The notes: generated by a model from the letters alone, not told the origin. A stretch of 64,000 nucleotides of DNA from Bacilli bacterium (GCA_017409905.1 JAFQRV010000008.1:6179-70178), one strand, 5' to 3'; positions 47,166 through 55,992 are shown, counted from the stretch's first letter. Made by a program: numbers and translations.

Positions 47166-48119
47166 TTACAAATTAAGAAGTAAATTATCTTTTAAAATAC
47201 TTGTATCAACTTTATTAATATTTGTTAAGAAAATTAGACAAATCTTTAAATCTATTGAAAATAAAAACAAAGTATTAGTTCCTATTGTATCTCCACAATG
47301 ATAATATATTTCTTTTCCATTGTGTTTAATAATTCTAATACCTAAACCATATTCATTATATTCTTCTTCATTTATATAATTAGGTATCTTCATATCAACA
47401 AAGTTTTCACTTTTTGACAAATACACTGCCCATTTCTTTAAATCATTAACAGAAGAATATAAGCCTCCATCCCCAATTGTTGCGCTACACCAATATTGGT
47501 CTTTTACTTTTAATATGTCATCTTCAATTATATGACCATATGCGCGATTTTTAATATTAGTAACTCCTTCAATATTTACTTTGGAATTATGCATTTTAGC
47601 TTTTTGAAAAATTTCTTCTTCAATAAAAGTACTAATATCTTTACTAGATACTTTTTCAATAATTAAACCTAGTAAAACATAAGCTGTATTACTATACTTA
47701 TATTTTGTACCTACTTTAAAATAAGTAGTATTGGTTTTCTTTAAAAAAGTTAAAATATCTTGATCTTTTATTTGTGTATCATCATGTTCCATATCTTCAT
47801 AATCATATATACCTGATGTATGATTAAGTAGATTCTTAATAGATATTTCATTAAAATAACTAGGTAATTCATTAAATATTTGACTTACCTTTGTATCATA
47901 ACTAATTAAACCTTGTTTTATTAACGATACAATACCATAAGCAATAAAATGTTTAGTAACCGATGCTAAACGAAAATTAGAATCAAATGTTATTGGATTA
48001 CTATTTTCTTCTTTTAAAACACCATTGGTTTTTTCTATAACCTTACCATTATTATAGTAATATAATGCATACCCTTGATCTTTATGAATAATTACATTTT
48101 TTAATAATTTTTCTAACAT
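47166..48119 (-). CDS. Serine hydrolase, beta-lactamase/PBP4*-like (class C fold)
   Basis: SxxK motif ASVTKHF and a YSN motif (KYKYSNTAY). ATG 48119 is preferred (GAGGTG upstream). Confidence 0.75.
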   Translation of the reverse strand: MLEKLLKNVIIHKDQGYALYYYNNGKVIEKTNGVLKEENSNPITFDSNFRLASVTKHFIAYGIVSLIKQGLISYDTKVSQIFNELPSYFNEISIKNLLNHTSGIYDYEDMEHDDTQIKDQDILTFLKKTNTTYFKVGTKYKYSNTAYVLLGLIIEKVSSKDISTFIEEEIFQKAKMHNSKVNIEGVTNIKNRAYGHIIEDDILKVKDQYWCSATIGDGGLYSSVNDLKKWAVYLSKSENFVDMKIPNYINEEEYNEYGLGIRIIKHNGKEIYYHCGDTIGTNTLFLFSIDLKICLIFLTNINKVDTSILKDNLLLNL

Positions 48120-48231
48120 ATTACACCTCATAATGTATTTATTATATCATAGGTTATTCTTTTTATCTACTTAATTATATTAATTGAATTATTTAGATTA
48201 TTTTGTTAAAATAATATAAGAGGTGATATAG

Positions 48232-49215: not shown

Positions 49216-49247
49216 AAAAAGTGGTAGAAATTCTACCACTTATTTTT
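49214..49247. terminator. Bidirectional terminator between the kinase-like gene and the 808-aa lipoprotein gene
   Basis: A7-AGTGGTAGAA-A-TTCTACCACT-TATTTTTT. Confidence 0.85.
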
Positions 49248-51673
49248 TATGCTTGTAAATCGTATAATTTAAATACAATACACATACCACTATAGTAAAT
49301 ACCAATATAATCACCAGTAAATAAATTATTAGTTGGATCCGTAATTGGATTACCTTGAGCATCTACTAAATATGTACCATTAAAGTAACCAAAACCATTG
49401 ATACCTTCAACTTTATCACCTTGGAATGTTGGAGCACCTAAAGTAAAAGTTTGATCTAAAACAGTTTGTAAATATGGATTAGTTGCACCAAAATCAAATA
49501 CTACATCATTATAAGTTAATGAACCTTGAACTTTTTCACCTGTAAATGATTGAGCATTACCTGATTTAATAATACTTACAAAGTTAAAGTATGAAATTGA
49601 TGGATCACTAGGATTTGGAGTTAAGAAAGTTTTACCATAGGCATTTAAGATTTGGTCTAATTGTTTAATTTGTGGAACAAGTATAGTTGCGTTAACTACA
49701 GAGAACCAACCTTCTGTACCTGCAACATATGAATCTAATGTACAATCAATAAATTCTGTATGAGCAATACTTTCATCTGCTTCTCCAGGTCTAACATGGT
49801 CTTGAATTAAAATTGGTCCACCAGCACCTTCAAATGTACAGTTTTTAACAGTAAATAATGGACTACCCCAGTTATATAAGAATGAGTTGAATGAATCATA
49901 AGATTTAGAATCTTCAACAGTCATTTGAGCTTTTGTAAGTTCTGGGAAGAAGGCAATAAATAATCCAGTAGATAATGTGTTTTTAACCATTGCTTCAGGT
50001 CCTTGTACTTGAACTAAAATTAATCCACCAGCTTTTTGTTTTTCTTCAACTTTAGGAGCATTTCCTAAGAATGAAATATTCTTAACATTAACTTTACCAG
50101 TTGCATCACCATTAAAGTGTAAGATTACAGAGTGACTAATTACTGTACCTTCTGCAGTAATATTATCATTTTCTCTTGTAACAAGAGGAAGAGTTGAAGT
50201 ATCCATATTGAAATAGTTACCGTATAAACCAAATTCTGCGCCAACTGCATGATGATGATATAAATTAACATAGTCTCTTAATGAACCTAATGTTCTAGCA
50301 TAATCAGAATGTGATGGTGATAAATCACTATCACCTTCATTATAGAAGAATTCTTTTGGAAGATCTTCTTTTGTAACTTTAATATTAGCATGTAAAATTA
50401 CATTTGCTGGATGATAATTTGCATCTAAATTATGTTCTTGTTTAAATGCAGCCCATTCTGCATATCCTTCAACATCACTTGGTCTATTTTCCACAAAAGC
50501 TAAATCAAGTGCAGTATATGCATTAAAGCCATCAACAACTTGACAATAATAAGTAACTACATATTTACCAATTTGATCAGCAGCTTGTTGTCTTGCTGTT
50601 AAATACATTGGAACGATTTCCACTTTTAATGATTTACCAACAGCAGCTTCACTAAAATTAATTGAACCACTTTCTTTATCAAAACTATCAACTAATAAAG
50701 CTTCTTCACTAACAGCTACATATTCTCCACCAACTAATTCATATAAATTATAAGTGAAATGCCATGCACCAGTATATGCATCAAAATCATCACCAGCTGC
50801 ATTTAATATACCTAATTCATAAATTGGTAATACTTTCCAACCATTGTCATCGCCAACCATGTATGGTTGTGTTCTATCAACATATTCAATTTCTTTATTT
50901 GTTTGTTCTTTAATATTATTATTATAAGCAACCCAATTTCTGTTTGCAGAAGTAGATAATACATAAACATATTGTTCCCATTTAGCATATAATACTAAAT
51001 CTTCATATACTTCTGTTGAGAAATCATATTTTTGAGTTAAAGCTTCATCAGTATACCAACCAGTTACTCTATGAGCAGTACTCTTTAATTCAGCAGGTGC
51101 AGTTGCAGTATTAGAATATACAACATTTTGTTGTTCTACTTCAAAACCAGCACCAGCATTAAATTCAACAGTAAATACTTCAGCAGTATCAACCCATTTT
51201 GCATATAAAGTTAAATCACTAGTAACTTGAGAATTAAAATCATATCTGTTTTCAAATTCAGCATCAAGATACCAACCCATTAAAGTTAATTCAGCATTTT
51301 CTACAGTAGGACGTTTTACAACTTCCCCTTCTTTAACTTCTACAGGTTCAACTACTGCATCACAATTTGTTTCAAATGCAACTGTAAATAATTCAGCCCA
51401 TTTTGCATAAATAATAATACTCTTATTTAATGCTGTATCGAATTTATATTCTTCAGTTAATTCAGCATCCTTATACCAACCAACAAATACACTGCCTTCT
51501 TTTTCAGGATCTTCTGGTTTTGTTGGAATAGCGCCTTTAACAACTTCCATTTGTGCAATTTCGCTTCCACCATTTGTTCTAAAAGTAATTCTATAAGATG
51601 AAGCTTGTCCTACACATCCAGTTGTCACTAAAGCTAATAAAACTAAAACAACTAATTTTTTTAATAATTTCAT
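49247..51673 (-). CDS. Large surface lipoprotein with three InlB B-repeat (Listeria-Bacteroides / Flg_new) modules and a ~570-aa unassigned C-terminal domain
   Basis: Lipobox LVTTGCVG. Three repeats ending in GWY.D..L...Y.F.......L.LYAKW. Confidence 0.75.
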   Translation of the reverse strand: MKLLKKLVVLVLLALVTTGCVGQASSYRITFRTNGGSEIAQMEVVKGAIPTKPEDPEKEGSVFVGWYKDAELTEEYKFDTALNKSIIIYAKWAELFTVAFETNCDAVVEPVEVKEGEVVKRPTVENAELTLMGWYLDAEFENRYDFNSQVTSDLTLYAKWVDTAEVFTVEFNAGAGFEVEQQNVVYSNTATAPAELKSTAHRVTGWYTDEALTQKYDFSTEVYEDLVLYAKWEQYVYVLSTSANRNWVAYNNNIKEQTNKEIEYVDRTQPYMVGDDNGWKVLPIYELGILNAAGDDFDAYTGAWHFTYNLYELVGGEYVAVSEEALLVDSFDKESGSINFSEAAVGKSLKVEIVPMYLTARQQAADQIGKYVVTYYCQVVDGFNAYTALDLAFVENRPSDVEGYAEWAAFKQEHNLDANYHPANVILHANIKVTKEDLPKEFFYNEGDSDLSPSHSDYARTLGSLRDYVNLYHHHAVGAEFGLYGNYFNMDTSTLPLVTRENDNITAEGTVISHSVILHFNGDATGKVNVKNISFLGNAPKVEEKQKAGGLILVQVQGPEAMVKNTLSTGLFIAFFPELTKAQMTVEDSKSYDSFNSFLYNWGSPLFTVKNCTFEGAGGPILIQDHVRPGEADESIAHTEFIDCTLDSYVAGTEGWFSVVNATILVPQIKQLDQILNAYGKTFLTPNPSDPSISYFNFVSIIKSGNAQSFTGEKVQGSLTYNDVVFDFGATNPYLQTVLDQTFTLGAPTFQGDKVEGINGFGYFNGTYLVDAQGNPITDPTNNLFTGDYIGIYYSGMCIVFKLYDLQA

Positions 51674-51690
51674 AATTAAATTCTCCTTTT

Positions 51691-52131
51691 TTACCCTAAT
51701 ATATCTTCTAAGCTTGGTTTACAAGTAATTTTAATTCTTAAAGATATATTGGAATTTCTATCTGTTGGAACGATTTCAATAAATGTCGTACCAGAATCTA
51801 ACATTTTGATAGTACATGTACCATCCCCATTTTCTACAAACTCAAATTTCTTTCCTAATTCATCACTATCATAGTCAAATCGTAGATTTGGATTAGTTGC
51901 ATTATCTGGTTCAACCTGGCATTTAATAACCACTTCTTGATTTTTTTGAACTGTAATAACTCCATCACAATATTCATCATTCTCAACAGCTACATATCCA
52001 TCTGTTATACATATTATTTTTTCTACATATACCTTTTCATTATAAACTTTTAAAGCTATTCCTAAAAATCCAACTACGACGATTGCTAGAATATATATTA
52101 TACTTATAGTTAAAATTACTGATTTTTTCAT
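51691..52131 (-). CDS. Membrane-anchored Big_2-like (bacterial Ig-like) domain protein
   Basis: 146 aa with an N-terminal TM segment. VEPDNATNPNLRFDYDSDE...GTTFIEIVP fits the Big_2 pattern. Confidence 0.6.
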   Translation of the reverse strand: MKKSVILTISIIYILAIVVVGFLGIALKVYNEKVYVEKIICITDGYVAVENDEYCDGVITVQKNQEVVIKCQVEPDNATNPNLRFDYDSDELGKKFEFVENGDGTCTIKMLDSGTTFIEIVPTDRNSNISLRIKITCKPSLEDILG

Positions 52132-52139
52132 ATTTTCAA

Positions 52140-53810
52140 CTACCCCTCATAATAATAAGCTTTAATCTTTTTAATAAACAATATTACACAACTTGTACAA
52201 TAAACTAAAGAAATAATCAACATTCTAATACATGCAGGTAAATAACTACCATGTTGTACACCTGATTCATCGAATAAAATGAATGCGATTACTGCATAAA
52301 CAAATGATAAGATAAATGCTAAAATAGTTGATTTATTTTCATTAGGATTATCGTTTACAACCCCAGTTGATGCATATTGTTCATTTTGTGGATTCATTAC
52401 ATCAAGTAAAGCACTATATATCATGTGCCCATAATGTAATAATAATATTGCAAAGCCAAGAATAATTATATTCCATGCATTAAATCCTACTGAATCGCCA
52501 AATATCCAAACAGTTATAAATACTGTAGGTATTGATAATATTAAGTTAAAGAACAATTTAGTAAACAGTGGATATAACGCGTATATTGGTTTAACTTTTT
52601 TCAAATATCCGGCTTTACCTTCACGACTGTAGTATGTCGCAACTAATGCATTAGATGCAAGCAATGGTAAACAAATAATTAAAATATTAAATGTAAAGAT
52701 TAATATTTCCCCTAAATATTTTAAGTCCATTGCCCCATATAAAGCATTTAGTAACAAAATAAGAATTGGAACAACTATATAAACCATTAAATAATTAATA
52801 GATATTGATATAGTTCTTAAATTAATTTTTAACTCTTTATTTACAAATGTAAAATATTTAGAATGTCTAACATTCTTATTATGACTTTGACGTGATTTAT
52901 TCACTTCAAAGTTTTTAGCCATTATACTAAAGAATAATGGTCTTGCAAGTAAATATACAAATGCTAATAATGCAAAATCGATAACTAATAATAGACCAAA
53001 CTTTAAAATAGTCATAATATTGATTACACAATCAGCATCAATACTTGCTTGTTCTCCAACAATAATTCTTATTAAGAATCGCATTGGTGGAAGATTAGCT
53101 TCTACATTAACTAAGAATTGATATAACCATTTCTTAATAGTAGGCCATTGATTAATTAAGTCAATCTTTTCAGGAATCAAATTAATTAATCGAACGATTG
53201 CTATAATAACTAAAGTTAATATAGAACCAAATAAGATAACTTGTAAAATTGAATATCTTTTAAAGAATTTATATACATACATTGTAGGTATTGATAAAAT
53301 TGCCCCTAATAATACAGGTATCGCAATTATCAATAGTAATGGAAACCACATCCATAAGAATGCAAATGGACTTGCACATCCTTTACTAACTAATAGTATT
53401 ACACTACCAAGCGTAATAGGTATTAAGAAACTTAAACTTCTTTTTATTTCATAGATATAAAATACAATTAATTTTGATAAGAAAATAATGTTACTATTTA
53501 CTGGAAATGTAATTAATACTCTATTATCTTCTGCAAAATATAAATTAAGCATTAAATCTTTTGTACAAGATATCAATGAAAGAATTAATGAAAATGTAAC
53601 AACTAAGATCATTATTCTTGGTGATTCACTATAATAAAAGATACCAATTACTTGACATAAATAAAGTACTACATAAGTGATAGCTGTTATAATCGCAAAT
53701 TTTAAAAAACCAAATAATAATGTTCTAAAAATATTCATTTTAGTTTTTGCCCAACTAAAATCAATTTTATTTCTTAGTTGCATCATTACTAGAGTCTTTA
53801 AGTTTTTCAT
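52140..53810 (-). CDS. Polytopic membrane protein, putative ABC exporter permease
   Basis: 556 aa with at least 12 hydrophobic segments. The start overlaps the stop of the upstream ABC ATPase fusion (TAATG). Confidence 0.6.
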   Translation of the reverse strand: MKNLKTLVMMQLRNKIDFSWAKTKMNIFRTLLFGFLKFAIITAITYVVLYLCQVIGIFYYSESPRIMILVVTFSLILSLISCTKDLMLNLYFAEDNRVLITFPVNSNIIFLSKLIVFYIYEIKRSLSFLIPITLGSVILLVSKGCASPFAFLWMWFPLLLIIAIPVLLGAILSIPTMYVYKFFKRYSILQVILFGSILTLVIIAIVRLINLIPEKIDLINQWPTIKKWLYQFLVNVEANLPPMRFLIRIIVGEQASIDADCVINIMTILKFGLLLVIDFALLAFVYLLARPLFFSIMAKNFEVNKSRQSHNKNVRHSKYFTFVNKELKINLRTISISINYLMVYIVVPILILLLNALYGAMDLKYLGEILIFTFNILIICLPLLASNALVATYYSREGKAGYLKKVKPIYALYPLFTKLFFNLILSIPTVFITVWIFGDSVGFNAWNIIILGFAILLLHYGHMIYSALLDVMNPQNEQYASTGVVNDNPNENKSTILAFILSFVYAVIAFILFDESGVQHGSYLPACIRMLIISLVYCTSCVILFIKKIKAYYYEG

Positions 53811-55930
53811 TAACTTCTTTCCTCTACAACTTCTTCATCAAATTGTTCAATTGTTTGCATGTAAAATTCTTCTAATGTTTTTCCTGTAGCTTCTATTTCT
53901 TCTAATGTTTTTACACAAAGAATTTGACCTTTTCTAATAATCGCAATTCTTTGACATAACTTTTCAACAATATCGATTAAGTGTGAACTAAAGAATACAA
54001 TATTACCTTCAGAGGCATGGATTCTCATACACTCTTTTACTTGGAAAATACTATTTGGATCAAGCCCAGTAAGCGGTTCATCTAAAATCCATACTTTAGG
54101 ATTATGTACTAAAGCTGACATAATAGTAATCTTTTGTTTCATACCATGAGAGTAAGTAGCAATCTTACTATCAATGGCATGTTCTAATTGGAAGATTTTA
54201 ATATATCTTTCTAATCTTTCATTTCTTTCTTCTTCTGTAACATTGAAGATATCCGCAATATAATTTATATATTCACGACCTGTTAATTTTTCATATAAAG
54301 CATAGTGGTCAGGAACATAACCAACATTGAATTTAGCTTTTGTTGGTTCTTTTGTTACATCATAACCACAAATCTCAATTGCACCTTCACTAAGTGGTTG
54401 TATACCAACAACTGATTTAATTATTGTTGATTTACCGGCACCATTTGGACCTAAGAAACCAAATATTTCACCACCGAACACTTCAAATGATGCATCTTTT
54501 ACAGAATAATGTTTATTAGTTCCATACTTCTTTGAGAAATGCTTTAATTCTAATTTTATCTCACCATTATTGTTCATCATTTCCTCCTTTTGTTCAGTAG
54601 ATAAATTTTTCAAATATTCTAATTTTTGTTGTTTGCTAACAACTAAACGTACATGTAAATCATAATGACTATCCGCAATTCTAAAGAATTCTGCATAAAT
54701 AAACCATTCAGCAAATCCTAATATTACATAAACGATAAAGAATAGAATTTGATAAATTGGTCTAAATACTAATTGATATCCCATAACATCTAAACTTACA
54801 TTAAATTCAAATAAATGTTCTGCCCATTTACCTAATTTATCAGCAATAAAATCTGAATTAATAAAGAAGAAATCGACATCATGTCCCATAGCTGTAAATA
54901 ACACATTACATACTAAAGCAATAACGAAATATGCAAAGAATCCAACCATTGAATAGTAAAACTCTTTAATTTTAGGACGTTTAAAGATTTTTAAAGCAAC
55001 TATTAGTAATGGCATAAAGAATGCAACCCAGTGATTATACCAGAATCTTATAAGCCCTGGATCAAATAAATTTGTCGAACTACTATAGTTAGGCATAAGC
55101 ATTGCGAACAATGCACCAAGTACGTTAATAAAATATGTAAAATAGAATAATTTTTTTAACTTAAATATTAAACAAAGGGGAATAATAAATAATGCAGTAT
55201 TACATAAATGAATTGGCCAAGACCATGGTTCTTTAAGACTAGCAAAATCATAACCAACCATAAAGCCAATTAAAACACCACAACTTACAAATACTAATGC
55301 AAATCTTCTTATAACTTCTTCTTTATCTCTTAATAAGAAATACATTACCATTGGTACAATAACACCTAAGTATAAGAAAATTCGATGTGCAAATGAAATA
55401 TCAATTACACTTATGATTGGATTTGCTAATCCAAAAGCAAACTTTAAAAAATATGTTGGCATAGTTGGTATCATCAATAATAACCAAATACCAATCATAA
55501 CTAAAATTGACTTAATAGTTACTTTTTCTTTTAGATCGATTATAAAATAATAACCCCATATTACAAAACCTAATAAGCATTCAATAAGCAACAATGTTTT
55601 AAATGCATTAAAATCAATAGTTCCAGTTAATAATACACTACATGAGTTAATATATAGTAAGTTTATAACATAAGTTATTGGAACAATAAATCTAGTAATA
55701 AATCTTAGACTCTTAATATTAAAGAAAGGTCTACATCCAAGAGTAAGTGTCGCGGTAAACTGAAACCATATCGCAAGTAAAGTAATTAAAGTAATACCTT
55801 TCGAATAAGGTGATGAGTCTAAACCTTCATAAGCATAAATACTATTATTATAAGAAAATATTCTTACAATTAAGATTAGCATCAACAAAATTGGCAATAT
55901 TCTTTCGAATATTATCTTTCGTATTTTCAT
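53810..55930 (-). CDS. Fusion: N-terminal ~440-aa polytopic membrane domain (YwaF/TIGR02206, TMEM164-like core) plus C-terminal ABC ATPase
   Basis: NBD: GPNGAGKST, SHGMKQK, WILDEPLTGLD, FSSH. Membrane part: WPIHLCNTALFIIPL...AMLMPN...FWYNHWVAF, paralogous to the stand-alone gene at 56161. Confidence 0.7.
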   Translation of the reverse strand: MKIRKIIFERILPILLMLILIVRIFSYNNSIYAYEGLDSSPYSKGITLITLLAIWFQFTATLTLGCRPFFNIKSLRFITRFIVPITYVINLLYINSCSVLLTGTIDFNAFKTLLLIECLLGFVIWGYYFIIDLKEKVTIKSILVMIGIWLLLMIPTMPTYFLKFAFGLANPIISVIDISFAHRIFLYLGVIVPMVMYFLLRDKEEVIRRFALVFVSCGVLIGFMVGYDFASLKEPWSWPIHLCNTALFIIPLCLIFKLKKLFYFTYFINVLGALFAMLMPNYSSSTNLFDPGLIRFWYNHWVAFFMPLLIVALKIFKRPKIKEFYYSMVGFFAYFVIALVCNVLFTAMGHDVDFFFINSDFIADKLGKWAEHLFEFNVSLDVMGYQLVFRPIYQILFFIVYVILGFAEWFIYAEFFRIADSHYDLHVRLVVSKQQKLEYLKNLSTEQKEEMMNNNGEIKLELKHFSKKYGTNKHYSVKDASFEVFGGEIFGFLGPNGAGKSTIIKSVVGIQPLSEGAIEICGYDVTKEPTKAKFNVGYVPDHYALYEKLTGREYINYIADIFNVTEEERNERLERYIKIFQLEHAIDSKIATYSHGMKQKITIMSALVHNPKVWILDEPLTGLDPNSIFQVKECMRIHASEGNIVFFSSHLIDIVEKLCQRIAIIRKGQILCVKTLEEIEATGKTLEEFYMQTIEQFDEEVVEERS

Positions 55931-55963
55931 ATTCCCACCTATTTACATAATATCTCAGTATAT

Positions 55964-55992
55964 ATTTTACAATTTATTAGTTTTTTTTTCAA
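55964..55992 (-). promoter_or_regulatory. Sigma-A promoter for the ABC-fusion operon
   Basis: On the - strand: TTGAAA, a 17-nt spacer, then TAAAAT. Confidence 0.6.

Follow-up and report, generated by a model that had tools for sequence, protein, structure and literature searches.

Four genes, termed A, B, C, and D in the following, are packed as one unit on the minus strand of a 64,000-nt stretch of DNA from a Bacilli bacterium (GCA_017409905.1, JAFQRV010000008.1:6179-70178; hereafter the window), where ORF calling yields products of 706, 556, 146, and 808 aa, respectively. A promoter-like site precedes the unit, and a bidirectional terminator hairpin follows it (Table 1). The coordinates given for the four genes in an earlier note on this DNA were reproduced exactly by the ORF call, from which gaps of 8 nt between B and C and of 17 nt between C and D follow as described there, and the TAATG stop/start overlap of 1 nt between A and B can be read directly in the sequence. 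Both bounding elements named in that note were found as well, as were the motifs listed for gene A, namely GPNGAGKST (residue 494), SHGMKQK (594), ILDEP (615), HLCN (241), LMPN (278), and FWYNHW (296). A GGTGGG ribosome binding site is situated 5 nt before the ATG of gene A. Since the number of promoter-like sites in this AT-rich stretch shows no enrichment over the shuffle expectation (53 found, 62 expected), the promoter candidate is to be taken as plausible only. Due to the many homologues of each gene, e.g., more than 115 full-length fusion clusters for A (52-93% identity), 267 matches for B, and 104 for the C-terminal domain of D, we regard all four ORFs as genuine genes and not as chance ORFs.

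Table 1. Genes, domains, and signals of the four-gene unit (positions in the window).
Feature	Position	Strand	Basis
Sigma-70-like promoter candidate, TTGAAA-17-TAAAAT, upstream of gene A	55964..55992	-	10/12 matches
Gene A, 706 aa, 12-TM YwaF/TMEM164-like domain plus C-terminal ABC ATPase	53810..55930	-	ORF, profiles, AF2
A, membrane domain, residues 1-445: six extra N-terminal TM helices, 6-TM ATGY core (205-415), long linker helix	54596..55930	-	AF2
A, Pfam TMEM164 (PF14808) match, residues 180-373	54812..55393	-	profile search
A, codon of Cys243 (HLCNT), putative catalytic nucleophile, predicted outer end of TM8	55202..55204	-	conservation, AF2
A, codon of His300 (FWYNHW), putative catalytic base, outer half of TM10	55031..55033	-	conservation, AF2
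A, ABC nucleotide-binding domain (NBD), residues 459-705	53816..54556	-	profiles, alignment
Gene B, 556 aa, polytopic (~12 TM) presumed permease, start overlaps stop of A by 1 nt	52140..53810	-	ORF
Gene C, 146 aa, one extracytoplasmic Ig-like (Big_2-like) domain behind an N-terminal TM anchor	51691..52131	-	ORF, hhalign
Gene D, 808 aa, predicted lipoprotein: three Flg_new repeats plus conserved unannotated C-terminal domain	49247..51673	-	ORF, profiles
D, codon of Cys20, lipobox cysteine (LVTTG-C)	51614..51616	-	sequence reading
D, three Flg_new (Listeria-Bacteroides / InlB B-repeat) repeats, residues ~27-240	50954..51595	-	profiles
D, conserved ~560-aa C-terminal domain	49247..50938	-	homologue search
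Bidirectional intrinsic terminator between convergent genes: hairpin with 10-bp stem and 3-nt loop, T-runs on either strand	49219..49241	.	hairpin scan

The Membrane Domain of Gene A

The N-terminal part of A had been recognised as a YwaF/TMEM164-type domain, and this assignment is borne out by a significant PF14808 match (E 1.3e-16, 61.2 bits, gathering cutoff 25) and by an invariant Cys/His dyad. The domain belongs to a distinct subfamily of 217 clusters at 50% identity, the best 150 of which comprise 52 full-length fusions and 33 stand-alone proteins without an NBD. Cys243 is invariant in 115 fusion homologues as well as in 22 distant stand-alone or fused sequences; His300 is invariant in the 115 fusions and at least 90% conserved in the 22 distant sequences. 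The spacing of the two residues (57 residues) resembles that of the C123/H181 dyad of human TMEM164 (58 residues; Reed et al.), the comparison being one of spacing alone.

In the AF2 model of A (mean pLDDT 85.8, pTM 0.64), 12 TM helices precede the NBD, with C243 on helix 242-256 (core TM2) and H300 on helix 291-312 (core TM4); a pTM of 0.64 leaves the relative orientation of NBD and membrane domain uncertain. Topology and placement of the active site were derived from a secondary-structure summary of this model together with the positive-inside rule. With the NBD set as cytoplasmic, lysine and arginine make up 15/58 in the predicted cytoplasmic loops versus 5/122 in the outside loops, and C243, H182/R183, P280/N281, D353-N358, and Y393/Q394 come to lie on the predicted outer face. 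The dyad and almost all other invariant residues of the membrane domain are thus predicted at the extracytoplasmic side. The predicted cavity portals of human TMEM164, which open to the bilayer and the cytosol (Reed et al.), count against an outward-facing site. From its conserved residues we infer that the membrane domain is acyltransferase-like, with putative catalysis via an acyl-enzyme intermediate.

The Nucleotide-Binding Domain and the Fusion

The C-terminal part of A matches Pfam ABC_tran (PF00005; 95.8 bits versus a cutoff of 25, residues 478-620). In an alignment with 115 homologues, GPNGAGKST (494-502; Walker A), ILDEP (615-619; Walker B with the catalytic Glu), GLD (622-624; D-loop), and H650 (H-loop His) are invariant, a canonical Q-loop Gln and LSGGQ were not found, and the signature reads YSHGM with Ser and the second Gly kept. 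The Q-loop position is taken by an invariant VPD541-H542; the VPDHYA motif is common to many stand-alone NBDs across phyla and is therefore considered a trait of the subfamily. By its best NCBIfam matches, GldA and DrrA, the NBD belongs to the ABC-2, DrrA/GldA-like type; it falls outside both families proper because it scores below both equivalog cutoffs. In structure, it is matched best by EcsA of the RasP-EcsA model 9a6w_B (31% identity, target-normalised TM 0.91).

Judged from its homologues, A is a real and widespread fusion. An assembly or frameshift artefact joining two genes, a concern raised in the earlier note, is ruled out by more than 115 independent clusters of full-length fusions and by the conserved linker helix, the fusions being found on contigs of up to 300 kb in NCBI, ENA, JGI, and Logan assemblies. 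A two-gene version, to which that concern pointed and which would favour an artefact, does exist in an Anaeroplasmataceae MAG (locus L017), where a 512-aa TMEM164 protein (82.4 bits versus PF14808) and a 245-aa NBD are encoded by separate adjacent genes followed by B, but it represents a natural variant and not a frameshift artefact. The occurrence of split and fused versions suggests, in the Rosetta-stone manner, that the TMEM164 domain and the NBD are functionally linked.

The Presumed Permease and Its Putative Extracytoplasmic Partners

Profile searches of the 556-aa product of gene B revealed no Pfam or NCBIfam match. Some homologues at 52-59% identity carry PF09847 (12TM_1), and a paralogue of 20% identity gave sub-threshold matches to PF16949 and ABC2_membrane_4. 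Foldseek matches of the AF2 model of B (pLDDT 81) are weak throughout (E 0.09-1.7) and are headed by CcmB (target-normalised TM 0.58-0.63), ABCG5/8, Wzm (6oih_D), and NosY; a 12-TM mycobacterial pump (540 columns) is also among them. The two halves of B show no detectable sequence similarity to each other, and due to this and to the weak fold matches a pseudo-dimeric ABC-2 transmembrane domain can be assigned only tentatively. B is located directly 3' of the gene bearing the NBD wherever a locus extends far enough downstream, irrespective of whether the NBD is fused, split, or stand-alone, with a junction that is usually an overlap or a gap of at most ~36 nt. Since paralogous operons pair a stand-alone NBD with a B homologue and lack the TMEM164 domain, B is presumed to be the transmembrane partner of the NBD of A. 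The role of ABC membrane partner previously proposed for B agrees with this adjacency, with the NBD/B paralogue pairs, and with the weak fold matches.

Gene C encodes a protein with a single TM helix at residues 5-23. Its former designation as a Big_2 protein stands as a remote homology (hhalign probability 95.5%, E 1.3e-8, versus the N-termini of giant Big_2 proteins in the paralogous operons) but not as a direct Pfam assignment, as no Big_2 (PF02368) match was obtained even at E <= 10. The region matched comprises the N-terminal anchor and the first Ig-like module of the Big_2-repeat proteins. C is thus best described as a predicted TM-anchored Ig-like protein, Big_2-like by remote profile homology.

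For D, the description as an Flg_new lipoprotein holds. Its N-terminus reads MKLLKKLVVLVLLALVTTG-C20, i.e., a signal peptide with lipobox as expected for a lipoprotein; 98 of the 99 full-length homologues show a lipobox-like motif, and the column of the lipobox Cys is at least 90% conserved. Flg_new was matched in three stretches (E 6.6e-44, 148 bits), in addition to TIGR02543 and InlB B-repeat. For the C-terminal domain, profile searches gave neither a Pfam nor a PDB match; its homologues are confined to the 104 clusters mentioned above and carry varying N-terminal decorations (Flg_new, Big_2, Big_3, or none). Sub-threshold matches to Beta_helix in three of these homologues and to Pectate_lyase_5 in three others make a right-handed β-helix fold possible for this domain.

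Conservation of the Four-Gene Unit

Loci of ~20 kb each were compared. The order A-B-C-lipoprotein is kept in 23 out of 23 TMEM164-containing loci with enough sequence, one of which is the split locus L017, and linkage of the four genes, which the earlier note had wished to see examined, is present in every related locus examined. These loci belong to Erysipelotrichales/Bacilli, Acholeplasmataceae, Anaeroplasmataceae, Christensenella, and Clostridia MAGs, the fusion itself being present in the Acholeplasmataceae MAG loci L014-L016. The unit is conserved in uncultured low-GC gut Bacilli and their relatives, and fusion or adjacency is held from Acholeplasmataceae to Clostridia while the identity of the membrane domain drops to 26%. 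The genes flanking the module differ completely between loci, and the four genes therefore appear self-contained.

Pairs of a stand-alone NBD and a B-like protein without the TMEM164 domain were found in loci L018-L028. In case of the clostridial paralogues, the NBD is ~50% identical and located beside a B homologue, with no TMEM164 domain within 10 kb. In the sample of loci, the TMEM164-containing operons end in a lipobox lipoprotein, whereas the downstream giants of the TMEM164-less loci L018, L019, L020, and L025 are TM-anchored and not lipoproteins; this association of the TMEM164 domain with a lipoprotein at the end of the operon is drawn from a small sample of phylogenetically non-independent loci.

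Comparison with Known Systems

A search of the accessible literature found no description of a system with such an architecture, in agreement with the earlier note, which knew of no characterised example. Closest to the membrane domain is the TMEM164/YwaF branch, which shares the above-threshold PF14808 match, the 6-TM core, and a Cys followed two helices later by an invariant His, and whose members are likewise predicted membrane-embedded enzymes forming an acyl-enzyme intermediate; human TMEM164 is a lyso-ether-phospholipid transacylase (Reed et al.). A differs from this branch by six additional N-terminal TM helices, by its C-terminal ABC ATPase, by its location in an operon with an ABC permease and surface proteins, and by the predicted outward-facing active site.

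The nearest precedent is LhaT (YpjA, DUF1405), a lipoprotein N-acetyltransferase of B. subtilis that acts at the outer face with a lipid-carried acyl donor and represents a sister branch of the ATGY superfamily (mBio 2025, PMC12345273). Both belong to this superfamily, and the extracytoplasmic side of a monoderm membrane, on which LhaT acts, is the predicted site of action of A. The acceptor of LhaT is the lipoprotein N-terminus, and its donor, a lipid carrier supplied by the PcrB/YvoF acetyl-heptaprenylglycerol pathway, has to be brought across the membrane by a flippase that is not yet identified (PMC12345273). A lipoprotein is always co-encoded in the TMEM164-containing loci. Unlike A, LhaT is a stand-alone 6-TM protein of a different branch without an ABC partner. 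As a profile search (E <= 0.01) revealed no DUF1405 match for A, the two proteins share the superfamily but not the family.

With the type V (ABC-2) exporters NosDFY, CcmAB(CD), Wzm/Wzt, and GldAFG, the module has in common the type of NBD, the weak matches of the permease model, and the encoded extracytoplasmic partners, one of them possibly a β-helix protein like NosD and one a lipoprotein (compare NosL). B differs in being a single ~12-TM polypeptide without a Pfam ABC2_membrane match, and the NBD in bearing a fused enzyme domain; sequence homology to NosD, NosY, CcmB, or GldF/G was not found. EcsAB/RasP of the Bacillota provides the closest solved or modelled NBD (EcsA) and an example of an ABC ATPase with both a functional and a physical connection to a polytopic membrane enzyme. 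Intramembrane proteolysis is inhibited when Ecs is lost, and the substrate transported by Ecs is not identified (PMC2996298). In EcsAB the partner is a separate metalloprotease, whereas the acyltransferase-like domain of A is covalently fused, and B shows no similarity to EcsB (PF05975). The clostridial operons L018-L025 resemble the module in NBD and permease (20-29% identity for the latter) and in a third gene that opens with the same MKK-TM-anchor-plus-Ig module as C, but are devoid of the TMEM164 domain and of a D-type C-terminal domain and encode huge surface proteins of 880-2090 aa.

Possible Function of the Module

With a probability of roughly 0.5, the four genes encode one cell-envelope machine, in which an ABC-2 exporter is tethered to outward-facing acyltransferase domains acting on a surface lipid or lipoprotein. 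B would form the transmembrane part of an ABC-2/type-V-like core driven by the NBDs of two copies of A (a stoichiometry that we infer), each of which would covalently carry the 12-TM YwaF/TMEM164 acyltransferase-like domain at its N-terminus, and C and D would serve as extracytoplasmic partners. ATP hydrolysis would drive B to flip or extract a membrane lipid, either the acyl donor or the acceptor, and the outward-facing Cys-His domain would form an acyl-enzyme intermediate and transfer the acyl group to a surface acceptor, for which a surface lipid, the lipoprotein D of the operon itself, and lipoproteins at large are candidates. Transport and acylation may be coupled in this way. The invariant VPD541-H542 at the Q-loop position speaks against this machine, as does the occurrence of the long membrane domain without an NBD in at least 33 clusters.

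The suggestion that the ATPase energises, or is regulated by, a lipid-modifying membrane domain holds in part: the TMEM164 domain is real, but since pairs of a stand-alone NBD and a B-like protein exist without it, the ATPase most likely energises the permease B. The acyltransferase-like domain itself appears to be a tethered accessory and not the part that receives the energy.

A first alternative, which we consider unlikely, is a role in the export and acylation of a glycolipid or glycopolymer, with export by the NBD of A and B, O-acylation outside by the YwaF-like domain, binding or processing of the glycan by D, and C as a scaffold. TarGH and Wzm/Wzt export lipid-linked glycans or glycolipids, and Wzm and other type V exporters are among the weak best structural matches of B, including NosY, for which NosDFY sets the precedent of an ABC-2 transporter with an extracytoplasmic β-helix partner. 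β-helix proteins typically bind or process glycans, which would suit the six D homologues with Beta_helix or Pectate_lyase_5 matches, although this assignment stays below threshold, and an outward-facing active site is expected for such a role as well. However, glycosyltransferase or polymer-synthesis genes are not conserved beside the module, the flanks of which differ between loci, and the characterised ATGY members act on lipids or lipoproteins and not on glycans (Reed et al.; PMC12345273).

Likewise of low probability is a functionally loose fusion, in which a transporter composed of the NBD of A, B, C, and D has a surface-protein role (assembly of an adhesion complex, mechanotransmission, or EcsAB-like support of another membrane enzyme) and the YwaF-like domain is a membrane anchor, co-localised or regulatory, or an independent lipid-remodelling enzyme. 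It is in agreement with the existence of a core of NBD, B, and surface protein without the TMEM164 domain, with the homology of C to the N-terminus of the giant Big_2 proteins of the paralogues, with the modelling of the closest NBD structure, EcsA, together with the intramembrane protease RasP, and with the occurrence of the long YwaF domain as a stand-alone protein. On the other hand, the putative catalytic and outer-face residues are strictly conserved within the fusions, which argues for an active enzyme under selection; fusion or adjacency has been maintained from Acholeplasmataceae to Clostridia, with membrane-domain identities down to 26%; and the product of the last gene changes to a lipoprotein in all cases in which the TMEM164 domain is present.

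Within the preferred reading of an exporter tethered to acyltransferase domains, a narrower version can be formulated, to which we assign little credence: an ATP-coupled extracytoplasmic acyltransferase machine for lipoproteins or surface lipids, in which the ABC-2 pair would flip or present the lipid acyl donor and the ATGY domain would acylate lipoproteins, either the co-encoded one or any, at their N-terminus.

Biological Significance

We know of no function for the bacterial YwaF-type members of the ATGY superfamily, and LhaT is, to our knowledge, its only characterised bacterial member. The operon described here places the YwaF-type domain in a fixed context, together with an ABC-2 transporter, an Ig-like protein with a membrane anchor, and a lipoprotein of its own, and by this context makes an orphan family amenable to testing. 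If enzyme and transporter cooperate, the covalent union of an ABC motor with a membrane acyltransferase would represent a new design principle and could explain the route of acyl donors to the outer face in monoderm gut bacteria. Acholeplasma laidlawii reportedly carries N-acylated lipoproteins in spite of lacking an Lnt homologue. Should the narrower version with acylation of lipoprotein N-termini be true, the module would provide a new way of modifying lipoprotein N-termini in Mollicutes-related Bacillota that lack Lnt, and the first flippase and transferase in one polypeptide. Modification of lipoprotein N-termini by LhaT tunes recognition by TLR2, and the module is carried by abundant bacteria that have not been cultured, namely low-GC gut Bacilli, Erysipelotrichales, and Acholeplasma-like bacteria, the surface lipoproteins of which meet host innate immunity.

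Organization and Surroundings of the Operon

The four minus-strand genes encoding proteins A to D were recovered by ORF calling exactly as the earlier note had delimited them (706, 556, 146, and 808 aa), and the close packing described there is borne out, with a TAATG stop/start overlap read directly from the sequence at the A/B junction and gaps of 8 nt (B-C) and 17 nt (C-D) derived from the ORF coordinates. Purine-rich ribosome-binding sites are situated upstream of A and of D. With regard to the two signals proposed to bound the unit, the terminator was found as a hairpin that is predicted to serve bidirectionally, for the operon and for a convergent 327-aa gene. The promoter-like site is present as well, but constitutes weak evidence, since such matches are no more common in the region (53 observed) than in shuffled sequence (62 expected). 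An Rfam scan of 48-58 kb at E ≤ 0.1 returned no riboswitch or other RNA element.

Features of the operon, its surroundings, and compared loci (window coordinates unless a locus is named)
Feature	Position	Strand	Basis or remark
Gene A, 706 aa	53810-55930	minus	ORF calling
Gene B, 556 aa	52140-53810	minus	ORF calling
Gene C, 146 aa	51691-52131	minus	ORF calling
Gene D, 808 aa	49247-51673	minus	ORF calling
Promoter-like site TTGAAA-17-TAAAAT	55992-55964	minus	sequence match
Hairpin, perfect 10-bp stem, T-runs on both strands	49219-49241	both strands	between D and convergent gene
Codons of D541-H542 in A	54304-54309
Convergent gene, 327 aa	48232-49215
PF00144 hydrolase gene	47166-48131	minus	just downstream of operon region
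Stand-alone TMEM164/YwaF gene, 278 aa	56161-56997	plus	divergent from A
YhhN-family gene, 236 aa	56951-57661	plus
Paralogous TMEM164-less operon	L018:9998-18022
Paralogous TMEM164-less operon	L020:659-9442
Paralogous TMEM164-less operon	L025:3428-14129
Locus with split A	L017:1962-12423		Anaeroplasmataceae MAG
Extra 151-aa ORF	L006:14486-14941		between C and D
Very large lipoprotein, fourth gene	L015:14130-22061		Acholeplasmataceae
Very large lipoprotein, fourth gene	L016:14069-16592		Acholeplasmataceae

The GC content of the operon (0.25-0.31) resembles that of the flanking DNA (27.4% for the whole window), and a horizontal-transfer island was therefore rejected. A known anti-phage defence system was likewise discarded, as PADLOC gave generic ABC-ATPase partial matches for A alone and none for B, C, and D. 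The convergent gene product ends in a uridine-kinase-like P-loop domain, which makes up its C-terminal half and is weakly matched by NCBIfam/Pfam models. The PF00144 gene (E 2.8e-46) encodes a serine beta-lactamase/PBP4*-like hydrolase and lies outside the conserved four-gene module. The stand-alone TMEM164/YwaF gene (PF14808, E 2.9e-14) encodes a protein with its own Cys96/His154-155 pair and, as called, overlaps the YhhN-family gene (PF07947) by 47 nt. Two paralogues of the AIG1/TMEM164/GPC1/YwaF/YpjA (ATGY) superfamily together with a YhhN membrane protein at one locus suggest lipid remodelling. As conserved partners of the operon this divergent pair was rejected due to its absence at other loci; a YhhN gene occurs elsewhere only in locus L005, approximately 9 kb from the operon.

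Fusion of a YwaF-Type Membrane Domain to an ABC ATPase

In A, a TMEM164 domain (PF14808, residues 180-373, E 1.3e-16, 61 bits versus a cutoff of 25) shares one polypeptide with an ABC_tran domain (residues 478-620), in agreement with the YwaF core recognized previously in the N-terminal part. By these profile matches A is assigned to both the ABC ATPase superfamily and the TMEM164/YwaF Pfam family; at the family level, Pfam and NCBIfam place it with neither LhaT/DUF1405, GldA, DrrA, nor EcsA. Its nucleotide-binding domain (NBD) belongs to the ABC-2, DrrA/GldA-like type and falls under every NCBIfam equivalog cutoff. A frameshift or assembly artefact was rejected, because a search of 5.8 billion proteins yielded more than 115 full-length clusters of the same architecture with 52-93% identity. 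These fusions are named “YwaF family protein” at NCBI (Erysipelotrichales and other MAGs) and labelled “ABC-2 type transport system ATP-binding protein” at JGI. Used by itself as query, the membrane domain (residues 1-445) proved to form a small subfamily of its own (217 clusters at 50% identity), the best 150 clusters of which include 52 full-length fusions and 33 stand-alone proteins (~445-506 aa) without NBD; the metagenome scan for this domain used a 4-sequence alignment.

The AlphaFold2 model of A (115-sequence alignment, mean pLDDT 85.8, pTM 0.64) comprises 12 TM helices, a long helix (391-441), and the NBD (459-705). With the NBD set cytoplasmic, K and R account for 15 of 58 residues in cytoplasmic loops versus 5 of 122 in outside loops, which agrees with an N-in/C-in topology. 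The ATGY superfamily is defined by a 6-TM core in which core TM2 bears the nucleophile (Cys, Ser, or Thr) and core TM4 an invariant His; these residues correspond to C123 and H181 in human TMEM164, whose transacylase activity needs C123 (Reed et al.). In A, the first six TM helices (residues 1-200), which are confined to this subfamily, precede the core. The counterparts of the dyad are C243 (HLCNT) and H300 (FWYNHW), spaced by 57 residues and both invariant across the 115 fusions; C243 stays invariant even in very distant fused and stand-alone relatives (18-37% identity), in which H300 is conserved to at least 90%. In the predicted topology, C243 lies where TM8 reaches the outer side and H300 within the outward half of TM10, and the outer face is also the predicted location of most of the remaining invariant polar positions (H182/R183, H241, N244, P280/N281, N299, D353-N358, and Y393/Q394). 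Due to this placement of the dyad and of most invariant polar residues, the membrane domain resembles an active enzyme whose active site, according to the model, would be directed toward the outer leaflet or the cell exterior.

The NBD carries canonical Walker A, Walker B, D-loop, and H-loop motifs, with D541-H542 at the Q-loop position and the signature YSHGM. Asp-His in place of the Q-loop glutamine is invariant in this NBD subfamily (G[YF]VPDHYA; signature YSHGMKQK), and motifs of the G[YF]VPDHYA type occur at at least 600 places in bacterial and archaeal genomes; the Q-loop and signature variants are subfamily traits common to many stand-alone NBDs. Foldseek matches of the whole A model are dominated by the NBD, the closest structure to which is EcsA in the integrative RasP-EcsA model 9a6w_B.

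Conserved Gene Order

Gene-neighbourhood comparison confirmed the proposed linkage of the four genes. In all 23 long-YwaF loci with enough downstream sequence (GTDB genomes; ENA, JGI, and Logan metagenomes; NCBI MAGs), A, split in L017, is followed by B, a small MKK-TM-anchored protein, and a lipobox lipoprotein, and most of these loci have a detectable D-type C-domain. The records are assigned to Erysipelotrichales, unclassified Bacilli/Bacillales, Acholeplasmataceae, Anaeroplasmataceae, Christensenella, and Clostridia MAGs. Since the flanking genes differ completely between loci, the module is regarded as self-contained. In L017, a 512-aa long-YwaF protein (TMEM164, 82 bits) is adjacent to a separate 245-aa NBD and B, and further downstream a 967-aa TM-anchored Big_2 protein replaces the small C and precedes a 1214-aa lipoprotein. 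Such a naturally split arrangement supports a functional linkage of membrane domain and NBD.

B as the Predicted Partner of the ATPase

For B itself, neither Pfam nor NCBIfam gave a direct match even at E ≤ 10, and profile search found no PDB match at E ≤ 10. PF09847 (12TM_1) is present in some homologues at 52-59% identity, and one paralogue from the TMEM164-less loci described below has sub-threshold matches to PF16949 (ABC_tran_2) and ABC2_membrane_4. The AlphaFold2 model (pLDDT 81) gave weak PDB matches (E 0.09-1.7), of which the top ones are type V/ABC-2 transmembrane domains, namely CcmB (target-normalised TM 0.58-0.63), ABCG5/8, Wzm, and NosY, together with a 12-TM mycobacterial efflux pump aligned over 540 columns. 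An internal duplication of B was not detected by hhalign of its two halves (probability below 1%). Thus B behaves like an ABC-2 permease by context and weakly by fold, and fits no curated ABC-2 permease family.

In loci L018-L028 of Clostridia and Christensenella, a stand-alone NBD approximately 50% identical to that of A is directly followed by a B homologue (534-583 aa, 20-29% identity), and no TMEM164-like ORF is found within 10 kb. The occurrence of these pairs is decisive for regarding B as the predicted transmembrane partner of A's NBD. We conclude that NBD and B represent an ancestral ABC-2-like transporter, to which a YwaF-like domain was added at the N-terminus of the ATPase. The earlier suggestion that the ATPase may energise the YwaF domain is modified accordingly by these loci: B is most likely the component that the ATPase powers, the enzyme domain being tethered to this transporter.

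The operons of L018-L025 consist of a stand-alone NBD, a B-like ~12-TM permease, and one or two giant TM-anchored Big_2-repeat proteins, and this type seems to represent the module in its ancestral state. Where the YwaF domain is present, the last gene encodes a lipoprotein; in the TMEM164-less loci L018, L019, L020, and L025 the downstream giant proteins are TM-anchored, the sample being small and phylogenetically non-independent.

The Surface Proteins C and D

C consists of one N-terminal TM anchor and a domain of ~110 aa. The designation Big_2 given to it previously holds as remote homology only: Pfam makes no Big_2 call and no Pfam/NCBIfam match was found even at E ≤ 10, but a profile of 15 C orthologues matches the anchor and first Ig-like module of the giant Big_2-repeat proteins (hhalign probability 95.5%, E 1.3e-8). 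These giants (880-2090 aa) hold the operon position of C in the TMEM164-less paralogues. The extra ORF of L006 has a lipoprotein signal nearly identical to that of D, and the Ig-domain sequence of C recurs past the lipobox (YVEEIKIILPEQTLDIEDRS...); by its sequence, this ORF seems to be a duplicated C anchored through a lipobox.

D was correctly described as a Flg_new-repeat lipoprotein, with three repeats and a predicted lipobox Cys at residue 20 (LVTTG-C20); a lipobox-like motif is present in 98 of 99 full-length homologues. The conserved portion of D comprises ~560 aa at the C-terminus and is present in only 104 clusters, whose N-terminal additions differ (Flg_new, Big_2, Big_3, or none). 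This C-domain has no Pfam/NCBIfam match and no PDB profile match, each even at E ≤ 10. Sub-threshold matches within this domain to Beta_helix (three homologues, best E 4.9e-4) and Pectate_lyase_5 (three, best E 1.3e-3) give a hint, and no more, of a possible right-handed β-helix fold. In the Acholeplasmataceae loci L015 and L016, the fourth gene encodes a lipoprotein that is very large and contains many Flg_new repeats; in L015 it exceeds 2640 aa and extends beyond the locus end. Since BLAST detected no D-type C-domain in the available part of either, exchange or strong enlargement of the lipoprotein partner is possible.

Proposed Function

The best-supported reading is that the four genes specify one envelope machine, an ABC-2-like transporter with acyltransferase-like domains and surface partners. 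B and presumably two A-NBDs would form the transporter, which would hold two outward-facing Cys-His acyltransferase-like domains, with C and D as its extracytoplasmic partners. Powered by ATP, B could move a membrane lipid and so supply donor or acceptor to the neighbouring enzyme domain of A, which would pass an acyl group on to an acceptor at the surface. Among precedents, LhaT (YpjA), from a branch sister to that of A within the same superfamily, is the most relevant. In B. subtilis, LhaT N-acetylates the N-termini of lipoproteins on the outer face with acetylated heptaprenylglycerol as donor, for which its authors identified no flippase (PMC12345273). Due to this precedent, the invariably co-encoded lipoprotein, and the predicted outer-face active site, acylation of lipoproteins or of surface lipids is the leading specific hypothesis.

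As a rival, the module may export and acylate a glycolipid or glycan, D being a glycan-processing protein with the β-helix hinted at by its homologues. A looser coupling is a further alternative, in which the YwaF domain works on its own and the ABC core either serves surface proteins, like its counterparts in the paralogous operons, or plays a part like that of EcsAB, which supports the intramembrane protease RasP.

As the earlier note had presumed, a characterised system of this architecture was not found: the literature searched on YwaF, ATGY, and TMEM164 in bacteria describes neither a YwaF-ABC fusion nor this operon. We regard the module as an ABC-2 transporter that carries a fused membrane enzyme and has surface partners of its own; its sequences are already in databases, where they bear generic names. 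On the basis of sequence and models, this clean, conserved system gives context to an orphan enzyme family.
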